Both the position numbers and the translations under genes were made by a program. DNA of 22,011 nt from IMG/VR virus record IMGVR_UViG_2609459830_000015, one strand, 5' to 3'. The notes under the pieces were generated by a model. That model searched no databases. It was not told the origin of the DNA and was given only the letters and a program-made list of their open reading frames with translations. The DNA comes from a virus. Lineage: Duplodnaviria > Heunggongvirae > Uroviricota > Caudoviricetes. This document shows, piece by piece, positions 1 to 22,011 of this stretch. Each line of letters opens with the position of its first letter. The stretch's first letter is position 1.

Positions 1-349
1 GGCGTAAGAGGCCCCGGAACGTTATCGTTCACACGGACCGTGGAGGCCAGTACTGTTCAGCAGATTATCAGGCGCAACTGAAGCGGCATAATCTGCGTGG
101 AAGTATGAGCGCAAAAGGTTGCTGCTACGATAATGCCTGCGTGGAAAGCTTCTTTCATTCGCTGAAAGTGGAATGTATCCATGGAGAACACTTTATCAGC
201 CGGGAAATAATGCGGGCAACGGTGTTTAATTATATCGAATGTGATTACAATCGGTGGCGGCGGCACAGTTGGTGTGGCGGCCTCAGTCCGGAACAATTTG
301 AAAACAAGAACCTCGCTTAGGCCTGTGTCCATATTACGTGGGTAGGATC
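1..349 (+). mobile_element. IS3-family insertion sequence, right-hand end only (element continues left of the window)
   Basis: Transposase OrfB C-terminal coding sequence runs into the window and stops at 320; 321-349 (ggcctgtgtccatattacgtgggtaggatca) reads as a terminal inverted repeat ending TGGGTAGGATCA, consistent with the 5'-TG...CA-3' termini of IS3-family elements. Exact boundary is +/- a few bp. Confidence 0.85.
3..320 (+). CDS. IS3-family transposase OrfB, C-terminal fragment (5' end outside window)
   Basis: Frame 3 is open from the window edge: ...[51 protein letters not shown]...[22 protein letters not shown]. The HTDRGxQY and CYDNAxxESFF blocks are the DDE-region signatures of IS3-family OrfB. 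Confidence 0.9.
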
Positions 350-471
350 ACGCAGGGGTCGGCCCATTTGAGCTTCAGATAGGAACGTTTGAATTCCTTT
401 CACAAAATACATCACATACTGAACGTGAACATTCCCACTTTGATCTTAAGGCCAAAAAGTATGCAGGACTA

Positions 472-2190
472 ATGATTTTTAGGGATAGCTTGAGAGTATT
501 ACCTTATGGTCGAGTAGATAATGATTTCTTCCAGATAGAAGAAAGACGTTCATGGAATGCAGGGCGATATTATTGGTCTAATAGAAGGATTTTTGGTTAT
601 ATTGGAATTACTCAATCCAGTAATAAAGAGCTGAAAGATAAGTCGGGGAGAGAGGGATTCATAAGAAACCAGGCTGCAAGAGAACTGAAAACTATTATAT
701 CTAATTTGTTAACTGAACTTGCTGATAGATTTTTTGGTTCACGTTCTGATGACCGTAAAGAGCTTTTAGAACAAGTTAAGCGTGAAAAAGAGTTAAGAAA
801 ATCTGCTCAACAACAAGCTCGAAAATCAACACAAAAAAGTTTTTCAGAAGCTTTGAAGAATCAGACACCAGTTCTTGATGCTTCCTTGGAGGCTGTTAAA
901 AGGCTGAAAACTAAGCTTGATAAAACTGATGGTTCGTTAGATTTAAACTATCTTAAAATTATAGACAGTGATCTTACAAACTTAGATGCGTTGCGCAGTG
1001 AAATTAAAACGCCTATCAAACCTCCAAAACTTGGAATGTATGAAGAGAAATATAGAGACTACAGAGATAAATTTAATGAGTTCTCTGCGTATATTCTACA
1101 AATGAAGTTAGCAATTAATAAACTTGATTCTGAATTAAATAAACTTGAGCCTTCATTGTCAGCGAAAAATCACCTTGAAAAAAATCAAGGTATTATTAAT
1201 TCTAAACTAACTAAGTTTAATAACACGATAGAGGAGAAGATACATTCTCTTTTAAAAAAATGGGCCGATGAAATAAAGGTTGATCGAAGTGATTATTATG
1301 CTAAAACTATATCAGTTGTTGATTCAATAGATAATGATTCACAAATTGAAAATGTGTTTAATTTGCTCGATAGTTTATATGTTGAGTCAGTTGATACCCT
1401 AACTTTCAAATATCAATCAATAATAAAAGGTCTCGATAGATTATTTGAAGGTATAAACTTAGATTCAGCATTCTCATTATCTGAAGAAGAACGCTCATAT
1501 TTTGAAGAAAAAGCTAAAAGTTTAAACGCGCTTGCACAGTTAGGTATTAGTGTTGAGATAATATCTCATGAACTTGAAGAAATGGATTCTATGGTAACCA
1601 GAGGACTAAACTCTCTTCCTACTTCTGTAAAAGAACACCCTGGTTTTTCATTGGCGTTAAATGCTCACAGATCGCTTACTCAACAAATACGTTTCTTATC
1701 ACCTTTGAAAATATCAGGTTATCAATCCAGGCAGAGAATAACTGGAAAAAATATCATGGATTATGTCCTGAAGTTCTTTGGGGAGCGTTTCGAACGGCAA
1801 CGAATAACTATTGAATTTAGTGAAGAGTTTAAGCAAATCGCAATAACAGATATACCATCAAGGATCTATCCTGTTTTTACTAATATTATCAACAATGCAA
1901 TGTATTGGGTCAGTCTGTCAAATAATAGGCTCATAAAGATTGGTTTTGTGAATTCTTTGGTTATCATAGCAAATTCTGGTCCGGCAATTGATACCGATGA
2001 TATCCCGCGACTATTTGAACTATTTTATAGCAAAAGAGCAAATGGACATGGGGTAGGTCTGTATCTATGTCGAGAAAACCTTGCTGTTGCACATCATAAA
2101 ATATGGTATTCAGAACCTGATGAAGGCGATAACTATTTAATAAAAGATGGCGCTAATTTTGTGATCCAGTTCAATGGAGTGGAGTTCTAA
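472..2190 (+). CDS. Histidine kinase core (coiled-coil region, HisKA-like H-box, HATPase_c); probably 5'-truncated by the IS3 insertion
   Basis: 572-aa ORF. C-terminal third shows an H-box (LGISVEIISHELEEMDSMV), N-box (VFTNIINNAMYW), G1 box (IANSGPAIDTDDIPRLFELFYS) and G2 box (GHGVGLYLCRENLAV). The N-terminal ~250 aa are K/E/L-rich, coiled-coil-like. The same frame is open upstream from 346 (immediately after the IS3 end) to the first ATG at 472, with no stop. Confidence 0.8.
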   Translation: MIFRDSLRVLPYGRVDNDFFQIEERRSWNAGRYYWSNRRIFGYIGITQSSNKELKDKSGREGFIRNQAARELKTIISNLLTELADRFFGSRSDDRKELLEQVKREKELRKSAQQQARKSTQKSFSEALKNQTPVLDASLEAVKRLKTKLDKTDGSLDLNYLKIIDSDLTNLDALRSEIKTPIKPPKLGMYEEKYRDYRDKFNEFSAYILQMKLAINKLDSELNKLEPSLSAKNHLEKNQGIINSKLTKFNNTIEEKIHSLLKKWADEIKVDRSDYYAKTISVVDSIDNDSQIENVFNLLDSLYVESVDTLTFKYQSIIKGLDRLFEGINLDSAFSLSEEERSYFEEKAKSLNALAQLGISVEIISHELEEMDSMVTRGLNSLPTSVKEHPGFSLALNAHRSLTQQIRFLSPLKISGYQSRQRITGKNIMDYVLKFFGERFERQRITIEFSEEFKQIAITDIPSRIYPVFTNIINNAMYWVSLSNNRLIKIGFVNSLVIIANSGPAIDTDDIPRLFELFYSKRANGHGVGLYLCRENLAVAHHKIWYSEPDEGDNYLIKDGANFVIQFNGVEF

Positions 2191-2191
2191 T

Positions 2192-3940
2192 ATGACAGTG
2201 GCAAATTATAATTCTCTTGTCCAGAAAACTTTCTGCGAAAATGCAATTCGTTCCGTTGTCATGATTGATGACGATTTTCTGACGTATTCTGAATCAATCA
2301 GGGCGTTGAATAACGAAGTTGATTTAGACTACAACAAAATTGACTCATCTAAACGAGCCGCTACTCTTGAGAGCTTTTTTCAATCTAAAAATATGATTTG
2401 TGATGTTGACAATGGTTCTGTTAATTTCGATGTGGATCGGATTAGAAAATCAGATCTTATTATTGTAGATTATCATCTTGATAATAATGCACCTGATAAA
2501 ACACTTAAACTATTACAAGATTTGAAAGACTCCGATCATTTAAATATGATTGTAATATATACTAGAGAGAATTTAGAAACGGTTTGGATGCAGATATCAT
2601 CGACTCTCAAAGGTGCTCTGGATATCAACAGCTTGATCATTGACTACGATAATGAAGATGTCCAAAGTTATTGGGAAGACGTTGTATTACCGAACTTAAA
2701 TGATAATGGTAATAAAGCTCTCACAAGAGATGAAACAATAGCCTATATTAAAGACAGTAAGCCTTGTAGAAGAATTAAAAGATTAATACATGATGATGCT
2801 GTGTTGGAGGATCAAAAGGATAAAAACTTCATTGCAAAAATGATTGCAGAATATGCTGTGTCTAGAAATGCAATTATTTCTAGCAACACATCTGGCAATG
2901 TCATTCGGGGTGATGAAAGCGGAGTAAAATGGATTCAATGTGGTAATATCTTTGTCTCCCTATTTCATAAGGTTCAAGATGATCATGAAAACGATGGAGA
3001 TAGAATTTGGCAAACTCTCAATGATTCTCTCATTGAATGGAAACCATCTTATTATCAGTTAATAAAATCTGAAATTCAGAATGCAATCGAAGCTGAGGCT
3101 TTATCTTTTGTAAATCATTTGGCTAACGATCATTACGGTCAAGCTGCGTGGTTAAATGAGATATTAAAATCAGACTCGCCTGATATTAGATGTAGAAATA
3201 TTGACTTTGTATTTGGTAATTTATCAGAAGAGCTTTATCAAAGACTTAAAAATAATAATACGCTGGATGAATTTATCAAAAGTGTTTTTGATAGCTATTC
3301 AAATGAATACGCTAACAGCGGAGTTGCTGCATTGCTCCAATATTGCTCTTCAAAAATGGATCTGCCATCAAATAATGATACTTATCACGAAATGTATCAT
3401 GCTTTAAATATGAATTTGTCTTCAAAGAATTTTGAAGATGGTCATATTTCTACTGGCACTATTTTCTTTGATACAGAGTCGAACAAATGGTATTTATGTG
3501 TATCTGCGGCATGTGATTTGGTTCCTACTCAGGGTAACGACCCTCACCATGTAAGATTAAGTCCGCACAGGCTCATTAAAGTTCTGGAGCTTTTTAACGC
3601 CAGTCAGAGTAAAGCATTGCCATTTGCTGAACATTCGAAATATATATATGTAATGCATAAAAATCAAAGAAAATATCTCTCTATTTTCGAAGGGGATAAA
3701 ACGCTTCCTGTTGTTGATTATATGGTGGTGTTGAATCATGGAACAACAGTTGATGGCGAAGAAAAAAATATTATTTCTGCCGTGTTTTTAAGTAATATGG
3801 ATGGCAACGTGCAAAATGTTCCTGTCCGACTCAAACTTAAATCTCAACTGAGAACTGGTTATGCAGAAAGATATCAGGCTATAGCGTCTCAGTATAGCTC
3901 AAGGATTGGTGTGGATTATGTATCAATGATGCTACCATAA
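2192..3940 (+). CDS. Receiver (REC)-like domain protein with a large C-terminal domain of unknown function (putative phosphorylation-controlled effector)
   Basis: N-terminus resembles a response-regulator receiver: acidic beta1 (VVMIDDD), candidate phospho-acceptor Asp at the end of beta3 (DLIIVDYHLDNN), Thr after beta4 (MIVIYT), then a Lys. The remaining ~430 aa have no motif I recognise. Start taken as ATG 2192 (GGAG at 2181-2184, 7 nt upstream; 1 nt after the kinase stop); an in-frame ATG at 2174 is the alternative. Confidence 0.7.
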   Translation: MTVANYNSLVQKTFCENAIRSVVMIDDDFLTYSESIRALNNEVDLDYNKIDSSKRAATLESFFQSKNMICDVDNGSVNFDVDRIRKSDLIIVDYHLDNNAPDKTLKLLQDLKDSDHLNMIVIYTRENLETVWMQISSTLKGALDINSLIIDYDNEDVQSYWEDVVLPNLNDNGNKALTRDETIAYIKDSKPCRRIKRLIHDDAVLEDQKDKNFIAKMIAEYAVSRNAIISSNTSGNVIRGDESGVKWIQCGNIFVSLFHKVQDDHENDGDRIWQTLNDSLIEWKPSYYQLIKSEIQNAIEAEALSFVNHLANDHYGQAAWLNEILKSDSPDIRCRNIDFVFGNLSEELYQRLKNNNTLDEFIKSVFDSYSNEYANSGVAALLQYCSSKMDLPSNNDTYHEMYHALNMNLSSKNFEDGHISTGTIFFDTESNKWYLCVSAACDLVPTQGNDPHHVRLSPHRLIKVLELFNASQSKALPFAEHSKYIYVMHKNQRKYLSIFEGDKTLPVVDYMVVLNHGTTVDGEEKNIISAVFLSNMDGNVQNVPVRLKLKSQLRTGYAERYQAIASQYSSRIGVDYVSMMLP

Positions 3941-4011
3941 TTATTATATTTTAGGCGTGGTGATTTTTTTTCGCCATGCCTATTTTATATTTATCATCAC
4001 AATGATGTTGT

Positions 4012-4428
4012 TTATTTTTGTTTAAGTCTTCTAAGCTTCATGCATTCTAATGAGAATAATAATAGAGTTGTGCTGTATATAAAGCCAGAGTTAGTTAATA
4101 ACTTTAAATTTAATGCTTCAGGATTTTCACTGAGAAAGTGAAAGGCATAAACTAAGTATACAGCTAAAGTAGCCGTTCCAATTGTTGGTCCAATATCGCC
4201 TTGATCATGAGGTTCAAGGTTTACATTGAACTTGAAGATTAGCCATTCAAATCCCCAAGTAAAAAAAACAACTAATATCATGGCTGCGAATAATTTCGCG
4301 ATGTTATCTGCTGATGGATTCATCAGAACAGATTGTTTCTGAAAAAATTCACAAAGTGAGAGTCCGAAAAAAATAAAAAAAAGTGGTCTGGAACTAAATT
4401 TTTCAAAAACTTTGAATAGGGTTTCCAT
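4012..4428 (-). CDS. Small integral membrane protein (about 4 predicted TM helices), unknown function
   Basis: 138-aa ORF with hydrophobic stretches (PLFFIFFGLSLCEFF; LFAAMILVVFFTWGFEWLIF; IGTATLAVYLVYAFHFL; GFIYSTTLLLFSL). AT-rich like the kinase/REC cargo. Starts 38 bp downstream of the integrase stop on the same strand. Confidence 0.55.
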   Translation of the reverse strand: METLFKVFEKFSSRPLFFIFFGLSLCEFFQKQSVLMNPSADNIAKLFAAMILVVFFTWGFEWLIFKFNVNLEPHDQGDIGPTIGTATLAVYLVYAFHFLSENPEALNLKLLTNSGFIYSTTLLLFSLECMKLRRLKQK

Positions 4429-4466
4429 TTTCTTTACCTTCAGGATTATATTAGCTATTCTGATAC

Positions 4467-5738
4467 TTAGGCTACCAGAGCATTTGATCTTTGAGCTTGA
4501 ACGTAATCACTCCACCATTGCATCAAACTCTGTCGCTCTATCAGATATTCTGCACGATTGTATGCTGCGATAATTTCATCTTTTTTCGAGTGGGCAAGCG
4601 CTGCCTCAAGAACTTCAGCTCTGAATTTACCAGACTCCTCTGCCGCTGTTCGTGCAATAGAACGCATACCGTGAGCTACAAGCTCGCCTCCGAACCCCAT
4701 TCGGATGATAGCTGCGTTGGCTGTTTGTTCATGCATATGATTAAGAGGCGCTTTTATGCTGGGGAAAACCCATTCTCTATGCCCACTTATTGATTTCATT
4801 AATTCAAGGATGCGCAAAGCTTCTTTACTCAAAGGAACTTTGTGAAGCTTTTTCATTTTCATGAAATCAGCAGGAATGTTCCAAATGCTGTTGGTTGTAT
4901 CAATATCAGACCACCTTGCGCGAACGGCTTCACCCGGACGAACCCATGTCAACAATTGCCATTCAATTAGCATACGTGTTTCCAACCGGATTGACGCATT
5001 CGTCAAAGATTCCATAAACCTTGGCAATTCGCTTGGGGGAAGGGCAGGCATATTTTGCTTTTTTGGTTTACTGAATCTTTGACCAAGGTTGTCAGCCGGG
5101 TTGAACTCAATAAGTTCTTCAGTAGCTGCCCACCGGAAGATTTCATTCAGACGTGAAATGATACGGCGTAGAGTTTCCAATACGCCTCGTTGCTCAATAG
5201 GATCAAGGTGTTGTTTTAAGAGCTTAGGTCGGATCTCATTGATAGGGACATTACCCAGACCGGGAAAGACATTTCTCTCTAAGCTGCGCCAGATGTCTGC
5301 TGCATGGTCTTGTGAGATACCTGATGTCTTTACCTTCTCATCTAACCATTTCCGCGCTACGGCTTGGAGAGTGTGCTCAGTAGCACTCTTTAATGCCTTC
5401 GCCTTATCGTTGTTATGGATTTGGGGATCAACACCATTTGCCAGAAAGGAGAGATATTCATCACGTAAGGCTCTGGCTCTTGCAAGGGTAAGGTGAGGAT
5501 ATGTCCCAAGGCTCATTTTGGTTCTTTTCTTGCTCACTGGTACTGCATACCTGAAATACCAATTTTTCTTGCCTCCTTTCGCCAAAGGAGCGATTCGTAG
5601 AATCAGACCATCACCGTCAAACAAGTTGATTTCTTTATCGGCTGGCTTGGTGCTTTTGATTTCAGTGTCAGTGAGCTTCTTAGCGATTTTTGCCATTTTG
5701 GGACCCTCGGTTTTTGGACCCTTCTTAGTGGGTCCCAT
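4467..5738 (-). CDS. int: P4-type tyrosine integrase (IntA/CP4-57-like family)
   Basis: 423-aa ORF. N-terminal arm-binding region typical of P4-family integrases (KLTDTEIKSTKPADKEINLFDGDGLILRI...KNWYFRY) and a C-terminal catalytic region (...AHGMRSIARTAAEESG...EAALAHSKKDEIIAAYNRAEY) with the R...HxxR...Y pattern. The true start is probably the internal Met (MAKIAKKLTD, about 5696). Confidence 0.9.
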   Translation of the reverse strand: MGPTKKGPKTEGPKMAKIAKKLTDTEIKSTKPADKEINLFDGDGLILRIAPLAKGGKKNWYFRYAVPVSKKRTKMSLGTYPHLTLARARALRDEYLSFLANGVDPQIHNNDKAKALKSATEHTLQAVARKWLDEKVKTSGISQDHAADIWRSLERNVFPGLGNVPINEIRPKLLKQHLDPIEQRGVLETLRRIISRLNEIFRWAATEELIEFNPADNLGQRFSKPKKQNMPALPPSELPRFMESLTNASIRLETRMLIEWQLLTWVRPGEAVRARWSDIDTTNSIWNIPADFMKMKKLHKVPLSKEALRILELMKSISGHREWVFPSIKAPLNHMHEQTANAAIIRMGFGGELVAHGMRSIARTAAEESGKFRAEVLEAALAHSKKDEIIAAYNRAEYLIERQSLMQWWSDYVQAQRSNALVA

Positions 5739-5861
5739 TCAGGGTGCCATAACTCGTAGTTCTCAGCAATTCTCACTGGACGACAATAGACGTAAAAAAG
5801 CCCGCAGAGCTTGTGCTGTGTGGGCTTAGTAGACTTCATTGAACTTCAAACAACTAAAAAG

Positions 5862-5897
5862 TGGTGGGCTGGCGGGAGTTGAACCCGTATCCGAAAA
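5862..5897 (-). other. att-site core: degenerate copy of the tmRNA (ssrA) 3' end, not a complete gene
   Basis: Minus strand reads ...CGGGTTCAACTCCCGCCAGC-CCACCA, matching the 3' terminus of E. coli tmRNA as I recall it (GCGGGTTCAACTCCCGCCAGCTCCACCA) with one base missing and two substitutions just upstream; similarity decays after about 36 nt and no ssrA 5' sequence is present at 5898-6230. Same orientation as, and 124 bp upstream of, the P4-type integrase. Confidence 0.6.
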
Positions 5898-6154
5898 ATT
5901 CTTAACCAATTGAATATTAATGATTTTTCTAATTTAAAATACCTCACGTGCATTTTACGTGCATATTGTAGTACCTCTAACGTCCTGATTCTGTCCAACA
6001 TTTTGAAGTGTTTAGGCGCCACTGGGGCGGTGATTAGCGCTGTTTTGTGCTGTTCATAGCACTTCAAGACTATTCAATTCAGAGCAATCGTTGAAGAATT
6101 ACCCGTAAGGTAATATCATACTATTTAGGTAACTGCGGTTATCACCATCAAGGG

Positions 6155-6188
6155 CCACTGATGACGCTGTTATCATCAGTGGCTTTTT
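6155..6188 (+). terminator. Rho-independent terminator-like hairpin (plus strand)
   Basis: Perfect 10-bp stem CCACTGATGA / TCATCAGTGG (6155-6164 / 6173-6182) with an 8-nt loop, followed by CTTTTTGT. No T-run on the opposite strand, so it is unidirectional. Confidence 0.6.
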
Positions 6189-6230
6189 GTACCTTCACTG
6201 CACAGCCAGTGAAGTGTTGAGGAGACTAGC

Positions 6231-6572
6231 ATGAGAACAGTAGCGAGAAGATCGATACAGACGATTGAGCGTCGGACTCAACTCGTCAGTTCTTTTGTTG
6301 ACTCAAACACAGCAAACGAGTTCTTCGTGAGAAGACTGAGTGATCGTGTCTCCCCGGCACGTCAGCTGTTTATTGTGACATTGAACAATGAGGTTCGTGA
6401 CGGTGACGTGATCCCGTTCGCTGAGATCGCCATGAACAAAGAAAAATTGCGCTATGTTGTGAAGCCAGCAGATCAGTATCCTCAGTATGTAAGCAGTAAT
6501 CTGCTGAAGAAAATTGAAGCGGCAATTGCTCTATACATGCAGAAGAACTACAGGGAAATTAACTACCATTAA
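6231..6572 (+). CDS. Hypothetical protein (113 aa), first gene of a cargo cassette between att and the prophage integrase
   Basis: ORF preceded by GAGGAG (6219-6224) 6 nt before the ATG; no recognisable motif. An 8-bp-stem hairpin (CTTCACTG...CAGTGAAG, 6193-6214) sits in the leader. Confidence 0.6.
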   Translation: MRTVARRSIQTIERRTQLVSSFVDSNTANEFFVRRLSDRVSPARQLFIVTLNNEVRDGDVIPFAEIAMNKEKLRYVVKPADQYPQYVSSNLLKKIEAAIALYMQKNYREINYH

Positions 6573-6583
6573 AAGGTTGCTGA

Positions 6584-7351
6584 ATGGCTCCTGCGTTAAT
6601 ACCTTCATATAACAAGGACTTGAACATTACGCCATTTGGCGAAAAACGTCTTATTGAGTCATTCTATTTTTTCACTGCCGAGGCTGGCTTACTGAGGGCT
6701 GATGAGTACATTGTCAGTTCTGGTGAGTTTCAGTACTACTTGGATGTGTATCAACTGGGATGTTCCACCGACGACTTTTTTTTAGACTATGGCAGTGACC
6801 TTCTTGATTCGAAGGTTCCAATGCAGGATCTGGTCAATACCCTCTTGGGTCTTGATATGGTAGACGATAACAAAACGATAAGAATAGGTCGTATACAGTT
6901 CAACGACTTTAATTTTATCGAAGAGAACGGTCAGATGATGACCGGAAAGCAAGTGAAAAGCGCTGTTATCGCACAGGATTTCCAATCAGCAGGTTTGGCG
7001 CGTGAGATCTATAAAATGCTTGCGCGAAAGCATGAGTTTCTCATCTGCGATAACATTCAAAGTATTGCCGGTGGTGCTCTTTGGGCTAGTAGCATCATTC
7101 GAATTGCCGAGGTACGGATCTACAATTCACGCACGAAGAAATTTATGGACATACTTGGTCCAGGTGCGCGTGGCGTTTCAGGTACTTTGCCATGGAGTGC
7201 GAATGATCTGTCTGTAGATGAGATTGTTCGCTGGGGTCGTGCGTATGATGATGAAAACTGTTGTCGTCACATTGTACATGTTATCTGTAAGGACCGACTC
7301 ATTGACGATCAATTTCATGATTATGTTTCGATAGGTGGCGCGACAGAATAA
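6584..7351 (+). CDS. Hypothetical protein (255 aa), second gene of the att-int cargo cassette
   Basis: ORF starts 11 bp after the upstream gene's stop and is followed by a terminator; no recognisable catalytic motif. Confidence 0.65.
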   Translation: MAPALIPSYNKDLNITPFGEKRLIESFYFFTAEAGLLRADEYIVSSGEFQYYLDVYQLGCSTDDFFLDYGSDLLDSKVPMQDLVNTLLGLDMVDDNKTIRIGRIQFNDFNFIEENGQMMTGKQVKSAVIAQDFQSAGLAREIYKMLARKHEFLICDNIQSIAGGALWASSIIRIAEVRIYNSRTKKFMDILGPGARGVSGTLPWSANDLSVDEIVRWGRAYDDENCCRHIVHVICKDRLIDDQFHDYVSIGGATE

Positions 7352-7363
7352 CCATCAAAAAGA

Positions 7364-7387
7364 CCCGGCATTTGCCGGGTTTTTTCT
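7364..7387. terminator. Bidirectional rho-independent terminator between convergent genes
   Basis: Hairpin CCCGGC-ATTT-GCCGGG (7364-7379) flanked by an A-run upstream and T-run downstream (aaaaaGACCCGGCATTTGCCGGGtttttt), so it works for the plus-strand cassette and the minus-strand integrase. Confidence 0.6.
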
Positions 7388-7392
7388 TCAAA

Positions 7393-15335: not shown

Positions 15336-15748
15336 AGGTACCCGAACAGAAGCAGGCTTAAAGGTGCCTGTTCAGGTTGGCAACCAACTGACCCAACTCC
15401 TCATGTGTACTAGGGAAGTAGTACGTTTTTATGGGGAAGAGGGTAAGGGGGGTAAGGGGGGATTGGGTGTTGGGGCAGGAATAGGGTCTTTTCCAACAGG
15501 AGAGATCCATTGGTTAAGTAGATCACTGTCTTAAGGGCGCAATTTAAAAAAACGCCCGTATCAGCAAGGTAGTACAAAGCGCTCAGGCGCTGAGAAACGA
15601 AAAGGGTTCTTCCTGGAAGAGTGATTTTTCAGAGGAGCTGAATCAGAAGGGAGGCTGGCAGCCTTTGGGGAGGCCACCAGCCATGTGAGGGGGAATCCAT
15701 GAAAACCACATCACAAAATTATTATCTCATCAGCACGGGAGCTGCACA

Positions 15749-17407
15749 ATGGAGCTGACGATCACGCCGAATTTTGCACAGGAACGAGCGTTAAACATGT
15801 TGCGCCGTGACTGGAAGGCAAACGACACCTTCATGGTTTACTCGCCAACAGGTAGCGGTAAAACGGGTCTGGCAGCCTTCATAGTTGCTGGTTTTGTCAG
15901 CCGTGGTATGCGTGTTCTGTTCTGTGTTCCGTACACCATCCTGATTGGTCAGACGGCTAATCGGTTCGTGCAGTATGGTTTACCTGGAGATGAAATCGGT
16001 TATATCTGGGCGGATCACCCGAACTACGATCCGGACCGGAAAATTCAGATTGCCAGCGCTGACACGCTTATTCGTCGTGTTTTTCCTGAAAATATCGATC
16101 TGCTGATTATCGACGAAGCGCACCTGCGTAAAAAACGCATCCTGAAGGATATCGAACGTCTGCGCGGCAAAGGCGTAAAGGTGATTGGCCTGTCGGGTAC
16201 TCCGTTTTCTCCGTTCCTGGGCAAATACTATGACCGACTGATTAAGCCGACCACCATCGGCGAGTTAATCCAGCGTGGCGATCTGAGTAAATACGAATTT
16301 TACGCGCCAACTAAGCCGGATCTGAAAGGTGTTAAAACCACATCTTCGCTTGAGTACGGCCGCGATTACAACGAAACACAGCTGGCTGAAATCATGTGCG
16401 GCTCTACGCTGGTGGGCGACATCGTACAGAACTGGCTGGAGAATGGTCGGGATTTACCTACCATCGCTTTCTGCGTCAACGTAGCTCACGCCAATTATCT
16501 GACAATCCAGTTTAACCTGGCGGGTGTTAACGCTGAGGTAATGACCGCCGACACTCCGGTAGATGAGCGCCAGACCATCATTCACCGCTTTGAAACCGGT
16601 GCAACGAAAATCATCGTTAGTGTGGGCGTTCTGGTGGCCGGCTTTGATAGTGACGTTCGTTGCATCATCTACGCCAGGCCAACAAAAAGCGAAATTCGCT
16701 GGTTGCAGGCTCTCGGGCGTGGGCTGCGCACCGCACCGGGTAAAGAGTCCTGCCTTATCTTCGATCACAGCGGCACCGTGCACCGTTTGGGTTATCCGGA
16801 TTCAATCGAGTACGACGAGCTTCCCGGTAAGTCTGACGGCATGGAGGAAAGCGCGCGCCGGGCAGTTGAGGAACGGGCCGAAAAACTGCCACATGAATGC
16901 CCTCAATGCCACTACATGAAGCCAGCAGGCGTCTATGTTTGCCCGAAATGTGGACACAAGCCGCTGCGAGGTGAAGACGTTGATACTGACACTAGCCGCA
17001 AACTTAATAAGCTGGGTAAAAATCAGCATCAGTCGACGAAGGCAGAGAAACAGTCCTGGTGGAGTCAGATCAAATTTTATCAGCGCCAGCGTGCTTCGCT
17101 GGGGCGTCCAGTCAGTGACGGATGGTGTGCTCACACTTTCCGGGAAAAGTTCGGTGAGTGGCCTGACGGACTGAGTAACTTTCCGATGGAAATTACCCCT
17201 GAGGTAAATAACTACATCAGACACAAACTGATCCGGTTTGCCAAAGGCCACCAGCGGGTTCAGAAGGTCACTGAAAACGCACAAACAACGATTGATTTAT
17301 CTCAGGAACGTGATGAACGACGTGAGATACCGGCAGGCAGTGAGGCCTGGCGCATCATGCAGGCAAAGCACCAACTCCAGAAAAATATAAACAGTCTGAG
17401 TCAGTAA
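15749..17407 (+). CDS. SF2 DEAD/DEAH-box helicase with C-terminal zinc-ribbon (phage replication helicase)
   Basis: Walker A (YSPTGSGKTG), DEAH box (LLIIDEAH), motif III (LSGTPF), motif VI (QALGRGLRT), and a C-terminal CPQC...CPKCG zinc-ribbon. Confidence 0.85.
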   Translation: MELTITPNFAQERALNMLRRDWKANDTFMVYSPTGSGKTGLAAFIVAGFVSRGMRVLFCVPYTILIGQTANRFVQYGLPGDEIGYIWADHPNYDPDRKIQIASADTLIRRVFPENIDLLIIDEAHLRKKRILKDIERLRGKGVKVIGLSGTPFSPFLGKYYDRLIKPTTIGELIQRGDLSKYEFYAPTKPDLKGVKTTSSLEYGRDYNETQLAEIMCGSTLVGDIVQNWLENGRDLPTIAFCVNVAHANYLTIQFNLAGVNAEVMTADTPVDERQTIIHRFETGATKIIVSVGVLVAGFDSDVRCIIYARPTKSEIRWLQALGRGLRTAPGKESCLIFDHSGTVHRLGYPDSIEYDELPGKSDGMEESARRAVEERAEKLPHECPQCHYMKPAGVYVCPKCGHKPLRGEDVDTDTSRKLNKLGKNQHQSTKAEKQSWWSQIKFYQRQRASLGRPVSDGWCAHTFREKFGEWPDGLSNFPMEITPEVNNYIRHKLIRFAKGHQRVQKVTENAQTTIDLSQERDERREIPAGSEAWRIMQAKHQLQKNINSLSQ

Positions 17408-17408
17408 G

Positions 17409-18377
17409 ATGAAAACAGCAGATGCAGCGAAAGGCCGCTGGCCTGAAATATTAGAGCACTTCGGTCTGCCGCCGATAACCGGAAAAAATCACTTCAAGGG
17501 TGAATGCCCGGTATGCGGTGCACGTGGCAAGTTCCGAATTGACGACCGCGACGGTGCAGGAACGTGGATCTGTGTATGTGGTAGTGGCGATGGTATGAAA
17601 CTTGTCACCCTGACACAGGCGAAGCCATTTAACGAGATTTGTACCGAAATAGACCGCCTGATCGGTAATGATTACCAACGGGTTAAAATCCCGGTAACCA
17701 GCAGCGCCACCAGCTTACGCAAACGGGTATTGAGCAAGTTTTCAAAACTGGAGGCACTGCGTGGTACATCCGGCGCAGCGTATCTTAATTCTCGTGGAAT
17801 ATTCAGTCTTCCTGCTGAGGCGATCCGGTTCAATGCCAGGCAGAGACACAACGGGAGTGTGTTCCAGTCTCTTTATTCACTTGCTACGGACGATAAAGGG
17901 GAGTTGTGCTATCTGCACCAGACTCTGCTTGATGGTGATAAAAAAGCAGATATCGGTAGCAGTGCAAAGCGCCTCAAATCCCTGCAGGAAGATAACTATT
18001 TGGATCACGCTCGTTCTGTAGCTATCCGCATGTTTCCTGTCGCCAGCACTCTGGGTATCGCCGAAGGCATCGAAACAGCGCTGTCAGCGCACCAGATTTA
18101 TAACGTGAACACCTGGGCAACCATTAACAGCGGCTTTATGAAAAAGTTTCGCGTACCAGCTGGTGTTCTGCACCTGATTATTTTTGCCGACCGTGACGAG
18201 AACAGCGCCACCGGGCTGGCTGCGGCTTGCGAATGTGCTCATGCCAATCTGATGGCAAAGAATGACCTGCAGCGCGTGAGCGTGTACTGGCCGGATCACG
18301 ATGATTTCAACAATATGCTCATGAACGGTGATCAGGTTCGAGAGCTGGTTTTCCATAAGAAAAAGGCGGTTGCGTAA
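17409..18377 (+). CDS. DNA primase (zinc-binding N-terminus plus Toprim domain)
   Basis: CPVCGARGKFRIDDRDGAGTWICVCG zinc-binding motif; Toprim signatures (GIAEGIETALS with the conserved Glu; LIIFADRDENSATG with DxD). Starts 1 nt after the helicase stop. Confidence 0.75.
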   Translation: MKTADAAKGRWPEILEHFGLPPITGKNHFKGECPVCGARGKFRIDDRDGAGTWICVCGSGDGMKLVTLTQAKPFNEICTEIDRLIGNDYQRVKIPVTSSATSLRKRVLSKFSKLEALRGTSGAAYLNSRGIFSLPAEAIRFNARQRHNGSVFQSLYSLATDDKGELCYLHQTLLDGDKKADIGSSAKRLKSLQEDNYLDHARSVAIRMFPVASTLGIAEGIETALSAHQIYNVNTWATINSGFMKKFRVPAGVLHLIIFADRDENSATGLAAACECAHANLMAKNDLQRVSVYWPDHDDFNNMLMNGDQVRELVFHKKKAVA

Positions 18378-19234
18378 TGCGTACTGATAATAACGAACAT
18401 AAAGCACTATTCACCATCCCGACGGCAGCGTACAGCTCCGCCCTCGCAAACATCAAGCCCCTGCCAGAGCAACGGAGAATCACCGGGCATAAGCAGACTG
18501 ATGCTTATCTTTGGGTGCTGGAGGTTATCCGTCTGAACGAACCCGCACATCTGGATGCTGCTGAGGCTGCGCTGGTGAAAATTAAAATTTCCCCAAAAGA
18601 GGCTCAGGAACGCTATTCGCGTTATCTGCTGGCGAATGGTTACGAACCTTTCCAGGTTGCGTTCGGCATCATCGGCATGGATAACCCTGCGCAGGTTATC
18701 AGGAACGCCCGGGAGAACATCAAAAAAGCGGCATCAGTCAGGGCTACGTTTGGTAGCTATGAAGCAGCGCTCGAAGATGTGGAAGCAGAGCGGGTCATCA
18801 GGTCTTCCCAGAAATTTATCAACGATCATCTCTGGGGCTGGACTGCGGCAGAGAAAAAAGCCGGAAGCATTGGCGGCAGCCGCATGAACGAAATTGATGA
18901 ACAGCGTCGGGCATTTGTTGATGGATATCGCGATGTGCTGCCTGAGCCTTATACGCTGTCTGATGTTGTTCGCGAGTTCGTTTACTGGGACTGGCTCTAC
19001 AGTGTTCGCCACACTGCAACTAAAGAACAGGGCGATGAGTTTGGTTACTCTGAGCATCACGAATCGGTATATGACCGGGAGCGCTACCTTGAAAAATTGC
19101 TGGCAACCATCAAACCGGTGACACGCGCTGAAGCCGTGGAGGTGTGCCGCTGGTTTCTGGCAAGTGGTAAGGGTGAATGCATGGAAGACGACGGTGCAAC
19201 GGTCATTCTCAATCTGGTTGGTGAGTGCGAATAA
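18377..19234 (+). CDS. Hypothetical phage protein (285 aa)
   Basis: ORF coupled to the primase (TAATG overlap at 18375-18379) and to the downstream Q-like gene; no recognisable motif. Confidence 0.55.
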   Translation: MRTDNNEHKALFTIPTAAYSSALANIKPLPEQRRITGHKQTDAYLWVLEVIRLNEPAHLDAAEAALVKIKISPKEAQERYSRYLLANGYEPFQVAFGIIGMDNPAQVIRNARENIKKAASVRATFGSYEAALEDVEAERVIRSSQKFINDHLWGWTAAEKKAGSIGGSRMNEIDEQRRAFVDGYRDVLPEPYTLSDVVREFVYWDWLYSVRHTATKEQGDEFGYSEHHESVYDRERYLEKLLATIKPVTRAEAVEVCRWFLASGKGECMEDDGATVILNLVGECE

Positions 19235-19626
19235 TGCGTGATATTCAGATGGTTCTCGAACGCTGGGGGGCATGGGCGGCAAGTGGTAACGCCGGGGTGG
19301 ACTATTCTCCGATAGCTGCTGGATTTAAAGGCCTTTTACCATCCACCGCTAAACCTCGCCCGGCCTGCAGCGATGATGACGGCCTTATCATCGAAAACTG
19401 CCTTACGCGCCTGAAGAAGAAAAAACCGGACGAGTATTCGCTGCTGGTAGCTCATTATCTGCTGCGCATATCAAAAAGGCAGATTGCCAGAACAAGAAAG
19501 AAGAGCGAAAAGGCAATACGAATTGAGATGCAGATTGCTGAAGGATTTATTGACGGATGTCTGTCGATGCTGGGTGTAAGGCTGGAGATGGACGACTGGC
19601 TGCCCAAAAAAGTAAAAAATGATTAG
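19234..19626 (+). CDS. Q-like late-gene antitermination protein (phage 82/21 Q type)
   Basis: MRDIQMVLERWGAWAASGNAGVDYSPIAAGFKGLL... resembles the N-terminus of phage-82-type Q antiterminators as I recall them. A strong intrinsic terminator lies about 60 bp downstream. Start taken as ATG 19234 (TAATG overlap) rather than the track's GTG 19225. Confidence 0.6.
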   Translation: MRDIQMVLERWGAWAASGNAGVDYSPIAAGFKGLLPSTAKPRPACSDDDGLIIENCLTRLKKKKPDEYSLLVAHYLLRISKRQIARTRKKSEKAIRIEMQIAEGFIDGCLSMLGVRLEMDDWLPKKVKND

Positions 19627-19684
19627 CGCGGTCCGCAAAAAGTATGTCAGTATGTTAAGAGTGGTTACTACGCCACACAGCTTA

Positions 19685-19708
19685 AACCCGCCGCGAGCGG
19701 GTTTTTTT
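19685..19708 (+). terminator. Rho-independent terminator downstream of Q (tR'-like)
   Basis: aaaCCCGC-CGCGA-GCGGGttttttt: GC stem 19687-19701, T-run 19702-19708. Confidence 0.7.
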
Positions 19709-19823
19709 ATGGCTGAAATCGGTCCAGTACAGTAAACGCGCTGGCGGCGGTGAATACCGGTCTTTCAGCTTGCTGGCTTTTTCGACAAGAGTTATTGGTG
19801 TGTCACGTTAACCGGAAAAAGAC

Positions 19824-20021
19824 ATGCTGAAACAGCAGGATATGACCGAAACCGCCAGAGTGGTGTTTAATGAATTAAGCGTCACCGAACCGGCGACCGT
19901 CGGGGAGATTGCGCAGAATACTTACCTTTCACGCGAACGCTGCCAGTTAATACTGACCCAGCTGGTTATGGCGGGTCTGGCAGACTATCAGTTCGGTTGT
20001 TACAGACGCCTTCAGTCCTGA
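19824..20021 (+). CDS. Hypothetical small protein (65 aa)
   Basis: ORF downstream of the tR'-like terminator; its stop codon sits in the stem of a terminator-like hairpin. No motif. Confidence 0.4.
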   Translation: MLKQQDMTETARVVFNELSVTEPATVGEIAQNTYLSRERCQLILTQLVMAGLADYQFGCYRRLQS

Positions 20022-20032
20022 AGGCTTTTTTA
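20008..20032 (+). terminator. Rho-independent terminator-like hairpin
   Basis: GCCTTCA-GTCC-TGAAGGC (20008-20025) followed by TTTTTTAT. Confidence 0.5.
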
Positions 20033-20485
20033 TTTGTGGTAAATGGGCGGCTGGTGGGTGTGGTGGTTGTTGCTTTCCCGTTGCTGAAAAAGAAAGCATC
20101 AGGCGATTAGCAGGGTATCAGTTACCCGTTGAAATTTTTAAATACCTCACAATTCAGGCGGTTGACTGTTGTCTGGTTTGCGGGGAGTTTGTTAAAAGAA
20201 ACTGGCATGGTGAATCCCCCTGTGCGGAGGGGCGATCAGCAACCAGGTATATGGGATAATCGCGGATTCAGGTGCTGATACTGAATTCACCGGGAGGCAC
20301 CCGGCACCATGCTTTGCCACAAAAGTGTTGTTTCTGTTTTTCTCAAACTATCATCGTTATCCCTTTATTTCCGGCTGCGCATGGCGTGGCCTTTTTTTTA
20401 CGACCAGCCACTGGCAGATGGCCATCCTGTAATTTGATTCCGGTTCCGGCTTTTTAACTCTGTTCCTGTACACGGGAGAAATTCG

Positions 20486-20774
20486 ATGTCGATTAAACAT
20501 TATGATGTTGTCAGGGCGGCGTCGCCGTCAGACCTTGCGGAAAAGCTGACACATAAACTGAAAGAGGGCTGGCAGCCGTTTGGTAGTCCGGTGGCCATAA
20601 CCCCTTATACCCTGATGCAGGCGATTGCAGCAGAAGGTGATGTGGTGGTCAGTGGTGCAACTGAGCCGGATTGGTACTACGTCATCGTACTGGCCGGGCA
20701 GTCCAATGCAATGGCTTACGGTGAAGGGCTTCCGCTTCCGGATTCATACGATGCTCCGGATCCGCGCATTAAAC
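20486..20774 (+). pseudogene. NanS-p-like esterase gene (DUF1737-like N-terminus plus start of SGNH domain), 3'-truncated by IS66-family insertion
   Basis: MSIKHYDVVRAASPSDLAEKLTHKLKEGWQPFGSPV... then ...YYVIVLAGQSNAMAYGEGLPLP, where GQSN is the block-I motif of sialate-O-acetylesterase-type SGNH hydrolases. Protein-like sequence stops where the IS terminus GTAAGCG begins (about 20775); the rest of the track ORF is read-through into the IS. Confidence 0.6.
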
Positions 20775-22011
20775 GTAAGCGTGCAGCAAGAACCGTATTG
20801 ACGGGGATGTGTTATTCAGTCGGCAGTGCTACGCGCCAGGGGAGCAGTTCGCCGACCCGGTTTATCGGCCAGTCGGCTATGACGTCAAGGACATAGCGGA
20901 GGTAGCTTTCTGGCTCCACTCCGTTCAGTTTGCACGTCCCGATCAGGCTGTACAGCAGCGCTCCCCGCTCTCCTCCATGATCCGAACCGAAGAACAGGTA
21001 GTTTTTGCGGCCCAGACTGACCATCCGCAACGCATTTTCAGCGATGTTATTGTCAGCCTCAGCCCAGCCATCGTTCGCATAGTACGTCAGCGCCGGCCAC
21101 TGGTTCAGGGCGTATGCGAACGCTTTCGCCAGTTCTGAGTGTCGCGACAGGGTTTTCATCTTTTCACGCAGCCAGCTTTCCAGGGATTTCAGCAGCGGTT
21201 TCGTTTTCAACTGACGTTCGGCAAGGCGCTGCTCCGCCGTCATTCCCCTTATCTCTGCCTCGATGGCGTACAGTTCGCCGATCCGTTTCAGCGCTTCCTC
21301 CGTCAGGGCTGACGGGGTGCGAACGTGCACATCGTGGATTTTACGGCGGGCGTGAGCCCAACAGGCGGCTTCCGTTATCCGGCCATCCCGGTACAGCTCG
21401 TTGAACCCGGCGTATGCATCCGCCTGCAGTACACCACTGAACCCCGCAAGATGGGTCTGCGGATGGATGCCTTTTCTGTCCGGGCTGTAAGCGAACCACA
21501 CCGCCGGCGCCAGCGTTGACCCGGCGTTACGGTCGTCACGAACGTAGGTCCATAACCGCCCGGTCTTCGTTTTCTTATTGCCTGGCAACAGCACCGGGAC
21601 AGGCGTGTCATCAGCATGGAGCTTACCGTCAGTCAGCACATAGTCCTGAAGCGCTTCTTCCAGCGGTGACAGTAGCCGGCAGCATGCATCCACCCAGCCC
21701 GACAGCAGTGAACGACTCAGCTCCACGCCCTGGCGGCCGTACATTTCAGACTGGCGGTACAGCGGGGTGTGCTCTGCATACTTTGAGATCAGCACGCGGG
21801 CCAGCAGCCCCGGTCCTGCGATACCCCGCTCGATGGGCCGTGAAGGCGCGGGGGCCTGCACGATGGCATCGCACTGAGTACAGGCATGCTTTTCACGTAC
21901 AGTCCGGATAACCCGGAAGGCGCTGCGCATCAGCTCCAGCTGTTCGGCGGCATCCTCACCCAGATAGCTCAGCGAGCCTCCACATTCCGGGCAGCATGAC
22001 GCTGCCGGCAG
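20775..22011 (-). mobile_element. IS66-family insertion sequence, one end only (element continues right of the window)
   Basis: TnpC-type transposase on the minus strand running to the window edge; terminus beginning GTAAGCG at 20775, 37 bp beyond the transposase stop. The GTAAGCG terminus is from memory of IS66-family ends. Confidence 0.75.
20812..22011 (-). CDS. IS66-family transposase TnpC (N-terminus outside window)
   Basis: The minus-strand frame is open from the track's Met (21930) to the window edge: ...[48 protein letters not shown]..., giving the CxxC...CxxC zinc-finger typical of IS66 TnpC upstream of the DDE region. Confidence 0.88.

Follow-up and report, generated by a model that had tools for sequence, protein, structure and literature searches.

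A kinase-receiver gene pair on an Escherichia coli ssrA island is the remnant of a mobile cassette with a C5 DNA methylase, a candidate methylation-linked phosphorelay system

The 22,011-nucleotide (nt) stretch analysed here (hereafter the window; IMG/VR virus record IMGVR_UViG_2609459830_000015, Caudoviricetes) carries near its left end two adjacent genes, one for a histidine kinase-like protein and one for a response regulator (RR)-like protein with a receiver (REC) domain. Judged by its profile matches, the pair is a degraded member of the HEF_HK/Response_reg_2 two-component-like family (PF19191, PF19192): HEF_HK, HATPase_c and Response_reg_2 are all matched above their gathering cutoffs, hence the assignment. 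It is the surviving 3' two-thirds of a methylase/kinase/receiver cassette, from which the methylase gene and kinase codons 1-375 have been deleted. The intact cassette, located on an ssrA island, is of the C5 DNA methyltransferase/paraMORC-type histidine kinase/receiver-effector type. We consider it probable, if by no means assured, that the intact family works as a phosphorelay conflict system linked to methylation and that the window copy is an inactive relic of it. The left end of the window is organised as follows.

1-350, + strand: IS3 element, 3' end only (orfB transposase C-terminus, stop codon at 320; right inverted repeat extending to 350)
351-2190, + strand: histidine kinase-like gene, 5'-truncated, corresponding to codons 376-988 of the intact 988-amino-acid (aa) protein
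2192-3940, + strand: RR-like gene, 582 aa, WP_000214990 (RefSeq "response regulator receiver domain"; Pfam Response_reg_2, E 3.5e-31)

The kinase reading frame is uninterrupted from the end of the IS3 element through to the stop at 2190, and RefSeq annotates a coding sequence at 472-2190 (572 aa, "ATP-binding protein", WP_000577254). In this 572-aa open reading frame (ORF), Pfam detects HEF_HK, the H-box/DHp domain, at residues 356-414 (nt 1537-1713; 26.1 bits, cutoff 24.1), with the H-box His codon at nt 1567-1569, and HATPase_c at residues 462-553 (nt 1855-2130; E 1.8e-11, 44.9 bits, cutoff 26.4). An initial annotation of the window, made from the sequence alone, had recognised a histidine kinase core with an H-box and N, G1 and G2 boxes and had proposed Pfam profile searches as a check. 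Those searches matched HEF_HK, HATPase_c and Response_reg_2; moreover, in 45 full-length kinases H782 and E783 of the H-box are invariant, as are the residues of the N, G1 and G2 boxes in the C-terminal catalytic domain. The C-terminus of the kinase profile matches the solved sensor kinases ThkA (E 1e-12), FixL, SrrB and ZraS.

The window kinase still has its coiled coil, both C-terminal domains (DHp, HEF_HK; catalytic, HATPase_c) and a portion of the middle region. It has no N-terminal MutL/MORC-type GHKL ATPase (HATPase_c_3), the first 375 of the 988 codons being gone; in an intact kinase (P0115), HATPase_c_3 spans residues 28-137, HEF_HK 772-830 and HATPase_c 878-969. Indeed, 988-aa homologs from Salmonella, Klebsiella and Serratia are 99% identical along the whole window fragment, and in a nucleotide alignment homology to the intact gene begins exactly at window position 351, which is codon 376. 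The same alignment sets the junction between IS3 and the kinase gene at 350/351, and the deletion breakpoint abuts IS3; the feature start at 346 given in the initial annotation is therefore to be moved to 351, since IS3 ends at 350. HATPase_c_3 has been lost from the window kinase by deletion and is not primitively absent. In the 45 full-length kinases the ATP-binding residues of this N-terminal GHKL module are likewise invariant (E32, N36, D39; D61, G63, G65; G104, G107, G109). The N-terminus of the profile matches PMS2, MutL and Hsp90, and residues 13-138 of the intact kinase match the BbrUII/HgiDII model NF050001 of NCBIfam (E 1.5e-13, 50 bits against a family cutoff of 550). No nuclease family was detected in the full-length kinase with Pfam, NCBIfam or a profile search against solved structures.

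The receiver gene follows in translational-type coupling, as initially proposed: a single base separates the kinase stop TAA (2188-2190) from the receiver ATG at 2192, and a GGAG lies at 2181-2184, 7 nt 5' of that ATG. The REC residues are D26/D27 (nt 2267-2272), the phospho-acceptor D93 (nt 2468-2470), T124 and K260 (nt 2969-2971); all five are invariant in 51 receivers. The receiver fold runs as far as K260 and includes a ~100-aa helical insert at ~128-226. The first description of this protein, an N-terminal receiver-like domain followed by a ~430-aa C-terminus without recognisable motifs, holds for the receiver, matched by Response_reg_2, and for a C-terminus outside any Pfam family; its length has to be corrected to ~320 aa, the receiver reaching to K260.

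The family-specific C-terminal module (residues 262-582, nt 2975-3937) is made of a helical part (268-410, ~140 aa) and a beta-barrel (411-570, nt 3422-3901), and it is the sole effector candidate within the cassette. It has no Pfam family, and no PemK or CcdB match was obtained in the 51 receivers (Pfam, E <= 10); as first stated, it is not an obvious nucleoside phosphorylase. The receiver hits no NCBIfam family, only PHROGs of unknown function (built from prophage records that include this island), and its profile found no match in a sequence search of the PDB. A search of 1.84 billion protein representatives with the profile of the module returned 616 representative clusters, and nearly all of the best 150 carry the module at ~260-600 of a 570-680-aa protein. 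By these matches the module is exclusive to this REC family; being found only behind this REC, it is not a shuffled effector domain. Its conserved residues are SEIQN 293-297, N406, TGT 421-423, SAACD 438-442, QLR 552-554 and RxGxD 571-575, with no invariant His or Lys, so a PD-(D/E)xK or HNH nuclease is not suggested.

That the barrel adopts a MazF/CcdB-like toxin fold is a weak lead, a hypothesis and not a finding. Sequence identity between the barrel and the MazF, Kid and CcdB folds is 4-13%, Foldseek of the module against the PDB returned nothing at E <= 0.001, and hhalign of the module against the MazF profile and against CcdB gave probabilities of at most 0.1%. The catalytic Arg/Thr pair of MazF could not be mapped onto the barrel model, and the barrel differs from the MazF and CcdB toxins in being attached to a REC and a helical domain and in lacking an antitoxin gene. 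The comparisons used sequences of Kid, EndoA, CcdB and E. coli MazF; that of E. coli MazF is exactly PDB 3nfc.

In the intact ssrA island (L002, the Salmonella/Klebsiella/Serratia allele, with the cassette at 8812-14717) the genes are ordered C5 methylase, kinase, receiver, and then the same 138-aa gene and the same integrase as in the window. The stop end of the methylase gene (402 aa; PF00145, E 7e-59) runs 20 nt into the start of the kinase gene. No methylase gene lies 5' of the window pair, where IS3 fills the first 350 bases; in an identical E. coli locus (L001), in which the element is annotated as an IS3-like transposase, chromosomal genes precede the IS3.

We surveyed related loci by scanning one genome per species in genome contigs, using tblastn and an all-against-all clustering of the flanking ORFs. 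The scan yielded 44 loci from Gamma-, Alpha- and Betaproteobacteria, Acidobacteriota, Planctomycetota, Gemmatimonadota, Verrucomicrobiota and Desulfobacterota, 37 of which have enough flank for the methylase neighbourhood to be judged. Methylase, kinase and receiver genes are adjacent in 36 of these 37 (from Gamma-, Alpha- and Betaproteobacteria, Acidobacteriota, Planctomycetota, Verrucomicrobiota and Desulfobacterota), with the methylase as immediate upstream neighbour on the same strand in 29 loci and as immediate downstream neighbour on the opposite strand in seven. Kinase and receiver genes adjoin each other in every locus whose contig allows the check, and a Vsr gene is present in 12 loci; clustering of the flanking ORFs of 40 loci revealed no further conserved gene. 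The rest of the neighbourhood includes Tn7-like genes for transposition, integrases, ArdC, a relaxase and further restriction or defence genes. The conserved unit is thus made of three genes, in a mobile-element and defence-island context and not at housekeeping loci. The initial annotation had placed the pair on a mobile island rather than at a housekeeping signalling locus and had suggested a neighbourhood survey of homologs; with relatives sitting among transposon, integrase, conjugation and other defence genes, the survey agrees with it. What had escaped that first reading is the three-gene cassette with its C5 methylase, and the loss here of both the methylase and the kinase sensor domain.

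The only informative locus without a detectable C5 methylase, within 7 kb on each side, is that of a Gemmatimonadetes bacterium metagenome-assembled genome (MAG) (L035, 1-19687). Its kinase alignment begins only at residue 76, and the locus could be another decayed copy or the user of a different methylase type.

The family itself is already known, as uncharacterised. It was described computationally by Bellieny-Rabelo, Pretorius and Moleleki in 2021 (PMC8011034), with E. coli members in the data set. These authors reported a kinase-receiver gene linkage of 91.6%, HATPase_c_3 at the N-terminus of 83% of the kinases, a marked association with C5 methylases and Vsr, and no known domain beyond Response_reg_2 in the receiver protein, whose C-terminal module they did not describe; they proposed a descent from paraMORC ATPases and, rather than an effector role, a signalling function controlling restriction-modification (R-M) systems, directly or indirectly (PMC8011034). 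The suggestion that the window might hold an undescribed system does not stand: the family, its kinase-receiver linkage and its methylase association were published then, and this very stretch is annotated in GenBank AJ304858. The window copy has both Pfam signatures, a C-terminal HATPase_c, and kinase and receiver genes that adjoin each other; it lacks the N-terminal HATPase_c_3 and the neighbouring C5 methylase, which the intact relatives share with the family, often together with Vsr. To this the present analysis adds that the three-gene unit is tight, that the widespread E. coli allele is a deletion remnant and that the C-terminal module is exclusive to the family, together with the weak MazF/CcdB-fold lead. 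The 2021 study also delineated a "group 2" architecture, HEF_HK and HATPase_c without HATPase_c_3, in 34 of 222 sequences (PMC8011034, Fig. 6). As annotated, the 572-aa E. coli remnant has exactly this architecture, and part of group 2 may consist of truncation artefacts rather than a natural variant.

In AJ304858, which covers prophage CP-1639 and its integration site, the same stretch is labelled "remnant integrative element" and "histidin kinase-like protein". Among 5426 complete E. coli genomes, 586 have the remnant (562 of them at 99% identity or more), and the IS3 junction is common to 484 genomes. At megablast sensitivity, the missing 2.3 kb was found in no complete E. coli genome; an intact allele of 72% identity is present in E. 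coli drafts (P0200). In strain 1639/77 (L050; AJ304858, 2683-2760) both the left and the right breakpoints are those of the IS3-bearing strains, with a 15-nt filler, ATCCTTAGAGATGCG, replacing the 1.26-kb IS3, as seen when L050 2683-2760 is compared with window 336-360 and L001 7730-7750. With identical breakpoints and a filler instead of IS3 in the CP-1639 record, two orders of events would fit: IS3 may have caused the deletion and disappeared afterwards, or it may have inserted at an older junction. In a draft contig (L051), the spacing from csiD to the kinase gene is too short for an IS3. The remnant was also met in a 5.6-kb contig binned as a Bacteroidales MAG (L006, DAIPZW010000118.1), at 99.8-100% identity and including the truncated kinase; the Bacteroidales assignment is most likely a binning or contamination artefact.

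Since the N-terminal ATPase, which occupies the sensor position, has been lost, the window copy most likely cannot sense and is most likely an inactive relic, even though kinase core and receiver still have intact frames. In the intact cassette, the methylase would mark host (self) DNA, and the GHKL/S5 clamp at the kinase N-terminus, similar to those of MutL and MORC, would report the state of DNA using ATP. The DNA state would in turn drive autophosphorylation of H782 and transfer to D93 of the receiver, both residues being conserved and the chemistry presumed. Phosphorylation would then switch the C-terminal module, which may harm the cell or the invader. Several points weigh against this reading. 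We infer the defence role, the role of methylation and the direction of signalling, and our literature searches found no experimental test of any family member. The HEF_HK match in the window kinase is marginal (26.1 bits for a cutoff of 24.1). The remnant, moreover, may not be inert: a usable ATG with an AGGA is available at 472, both frames are intact in the window, and relative to the intact allele the receiver shows only one conservative change beside 13 synonymous ones.

A more specific form of the conflict-system reading, which we put forward tentatively, is that the intact cassette is a new R-M-like immune system in which a MORC-like ATPase reports non-self DNA via a His-Asp phosphorelay instead of the DNA being cut outright, the output being an unrecognised receiver toxin module, possibly a MazF/CcdB-like barrel, that arrests the infected cell. 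About one tenth of complete E. coli genomes tolerate the receiver without the methylase, which suggests that the effector is inactive without the kinase sensor domain, or unexpressed; if the immune reading is true, the E. coli relic would show the effector to be harmless without its sensor. Like the GHKL-based R-M systems (paraMORC, Iyer et al. 2008, PMC2292703; BbrUII/HgiDII, NF050001), the cassette combines a GHKL ATPase start with a C5 methylase and sometimes Vsr. Unlike BbrUII/HgiDII, it has no nuclease domain, and a coiled coil links its ATPase to a histidine-kinase core, which feeds a receiver on a separate protein.

Three further comparisons led nowhere. Iyer et al. 2008 (PMC2292703) describe none of their paraMORC families with a kinase or receiver. 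MADS was rejected as the same system: its kinase, part of an eight-gene operon, was flagged by PADLOC as a component of a DNA-modification system, and in the MADS preprint there is no mention of a receiver, HATPase, GHKL or MORC. A paraMORC protein reported in the WASA Vibrio cholerae paper is an unrelated GHKL-Shedu nuclease fusion.

It is rather unlikely that the cassette is a regulatory two-component system, in which the kinase would sense an intracellular cue (for example a nucleotide level) and the receiver would be a transcription factor for the neighbouring R-M genes. DNA-binding proteins make up the majority of response regulators, and the ~140-aa helical domain of the C-terminal module would fit such a role. 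A control of R-M systems is also what the authors of PMC8011034 propose.

Distinctly unlikely, in our estimate, is that the truncated pair has been kept because it still functions alone, either as a sensor-less kinase restraining a toxic receiver or as a minimal abortive-infection or addiction module of the island. In its favour are the number of E. coli genomes with the locus and its near-identity in most of them, the two intact frames, the pattern of synonymous changes in the receiver, and the preserved gene coupling and terminator. High identity, however, fits recent common descent rather than selection, and much of the synonymous divergence may be older than the deletion. The kinase remnant differs from the intact allele by five non-synonymous and four synonymous changes (two junction codons excluded), and a promoter scan 5' of the remnant found sites no more frequent than expected by chance. 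Moreover, the receiver is frameshifted near codon 532 in one complete genome (strain 'numer 3', L005, 5192-6942). A second break is hinted at codon 453/454: the draft contig L051 (4001-5359) stops there, a cluster of 453-aa partial receivers has 1605 member sequences, and the receiver falls into separate PHROGs (7659 and 30547), one of them, of 129 aa, spanning residues 454-582. Taken together, the receiver gene appears to be broken in part of the E. coli population.

The initial annotation had likened the architecture to the Detocs family. Detocs consists of three genes, all required for detection: DtcA, a sensor kinase with TPR; DtcB, a REC only; and DtcC, a REC fused to PNP or another known effector (Rousset et al., bioRxiv 10.1101/2023.01.24.525353). 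The pair resembles Detocs in outline, with a His-to-Asp phosphorelay (here deduced from residues and fold), a receiver fused to a non-DNA-binding output and a location on mobile DNA, and Detocs shows that such phosphorelays can be immune systems. Nevertheless, it shows none of the Detocs membership features tested. The sensor is a GHKL ATPase and not TPR, the effector is not PNP, the DHp and REC domains come from other Pfam families (HEF_HK, Response_reg_2), and a C5 methylase is almost always linked instead. The initial annotation had rightly noted the lack of a REC-only gene and of a C-terminal REC on the kinase, neither of which appears in the ORF list or the Pfam scan: no stand-alone receiver ORF of the DtcB type lies between 1 and 6100, and none is conserved among the related loci. 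PADLOC-DB v2, the release of which presumably includes Detocs models, gave matches at noise level only when run on the window proteins, on the kinase at full length and on three more receiver homologs, so that no model matches either protein, truncated or full length. A divergent Detocs member is accordingly highly improbable. From the first proposal of a candidate phosphorelay defence system there remains a kinase/REC-effector pair on a mobile island that is in no PADLOC-DB v2 model, without the kinship to Detocs and without the novelty.

To the right of the pair, the island continues with the following features.

3952-3982, + strand: intrinsic-terminator-like hairpin, a 12-bp stem followed by a T run, straight after the RR-like stop codon
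4012-4428, - strand: hydrophobic hypothetical protein, 138 aa; an island gene in Enterobacterales, outside the cross-phylum cassette
4467-5738, - strand: P4-type tyrosine integrase, 423 aa (Pfam Arm-DNA-bind_3, Phage_int_M, Phage_integrase)
~5861-5887, no strand assigned: ssrA 3'-end copy (att core) at the island's right border, with a second integrated element beyond

The AT-rich cargo block beside a P4-type integrase and an ssrA att core was correctly seen at the outset: G+C content is 0.29-0.37 across 500-4500 and ~0.5 further right. The integrase adjoins ssrA in L001 and in a second locus, L002, and the ssrA-side sequence of L001 aligns identically with the window until ~5861-5887 and diverges beyond. 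No tmRNA gene is found in the window, so the real ssrA must lie outside it. The 138-aa ORF has no Pfam or NCBIfam family; its product is encoded next to the RR-like gene in enterobacterial loci only, with 53-100% identity there, and is absent elsewhere.

The second element lies in tandem behind the island and begins directly after the ssrA 3'-end copy (window 5861-20700). It includes two ORFs that belong to PHROG families of unknown function (6231-6572 and 6584-7351), its own integrase with Arm-DNA-bind_2 (7393-8571, - strand), an ORF6N protein and an SPFH/Band 7 protein, an S24 LexA/CI-like repressor (13965-14657, - strand), a DEAD/ResIII helicase (15749-17407) and a zinc-ribbon/Toprim primase (17409-18377). 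Close to its right end, a full-length match to the Rfam small RNA STnc100 (RF02076) lies at 20176-20348 on the + strand (108 bits; gathering score 47). In its GC-rich right end, the window holds an IS66-family transposase (20812-21930, - strand; DDE_Tnp_IS66, E 6e-107), ISEc22-like according to the label of its E. coli match.

The window locus in itself matters little: it is a decayed island remnant carried by about one tenth of complete E. coli genomes and flagged in a GenBank record of the 2005 era, and Pfam has listed the domains of the pair since the 2021 paper. More interesting is the family, a tight cassette made up of a C5 methylase, a kinase whose two GHKL modules are both catalytically intact, and a receiver whose output domain is private and unannotated. 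It is spread over many phyla by transposons, integrative islands and defence islands, and PADLOC-DB v2 lacks it. The intact family is a good candidate bacterial immune system for experimental test, and the survey supplies a testable construct, an intact allele 99% identical to the E. coli remnant. Should the family be an immune system, it would follow Detocs as the second two-component system with a defensive role, and be the first in which a phosphorelay reads out epigenetic self-marking.

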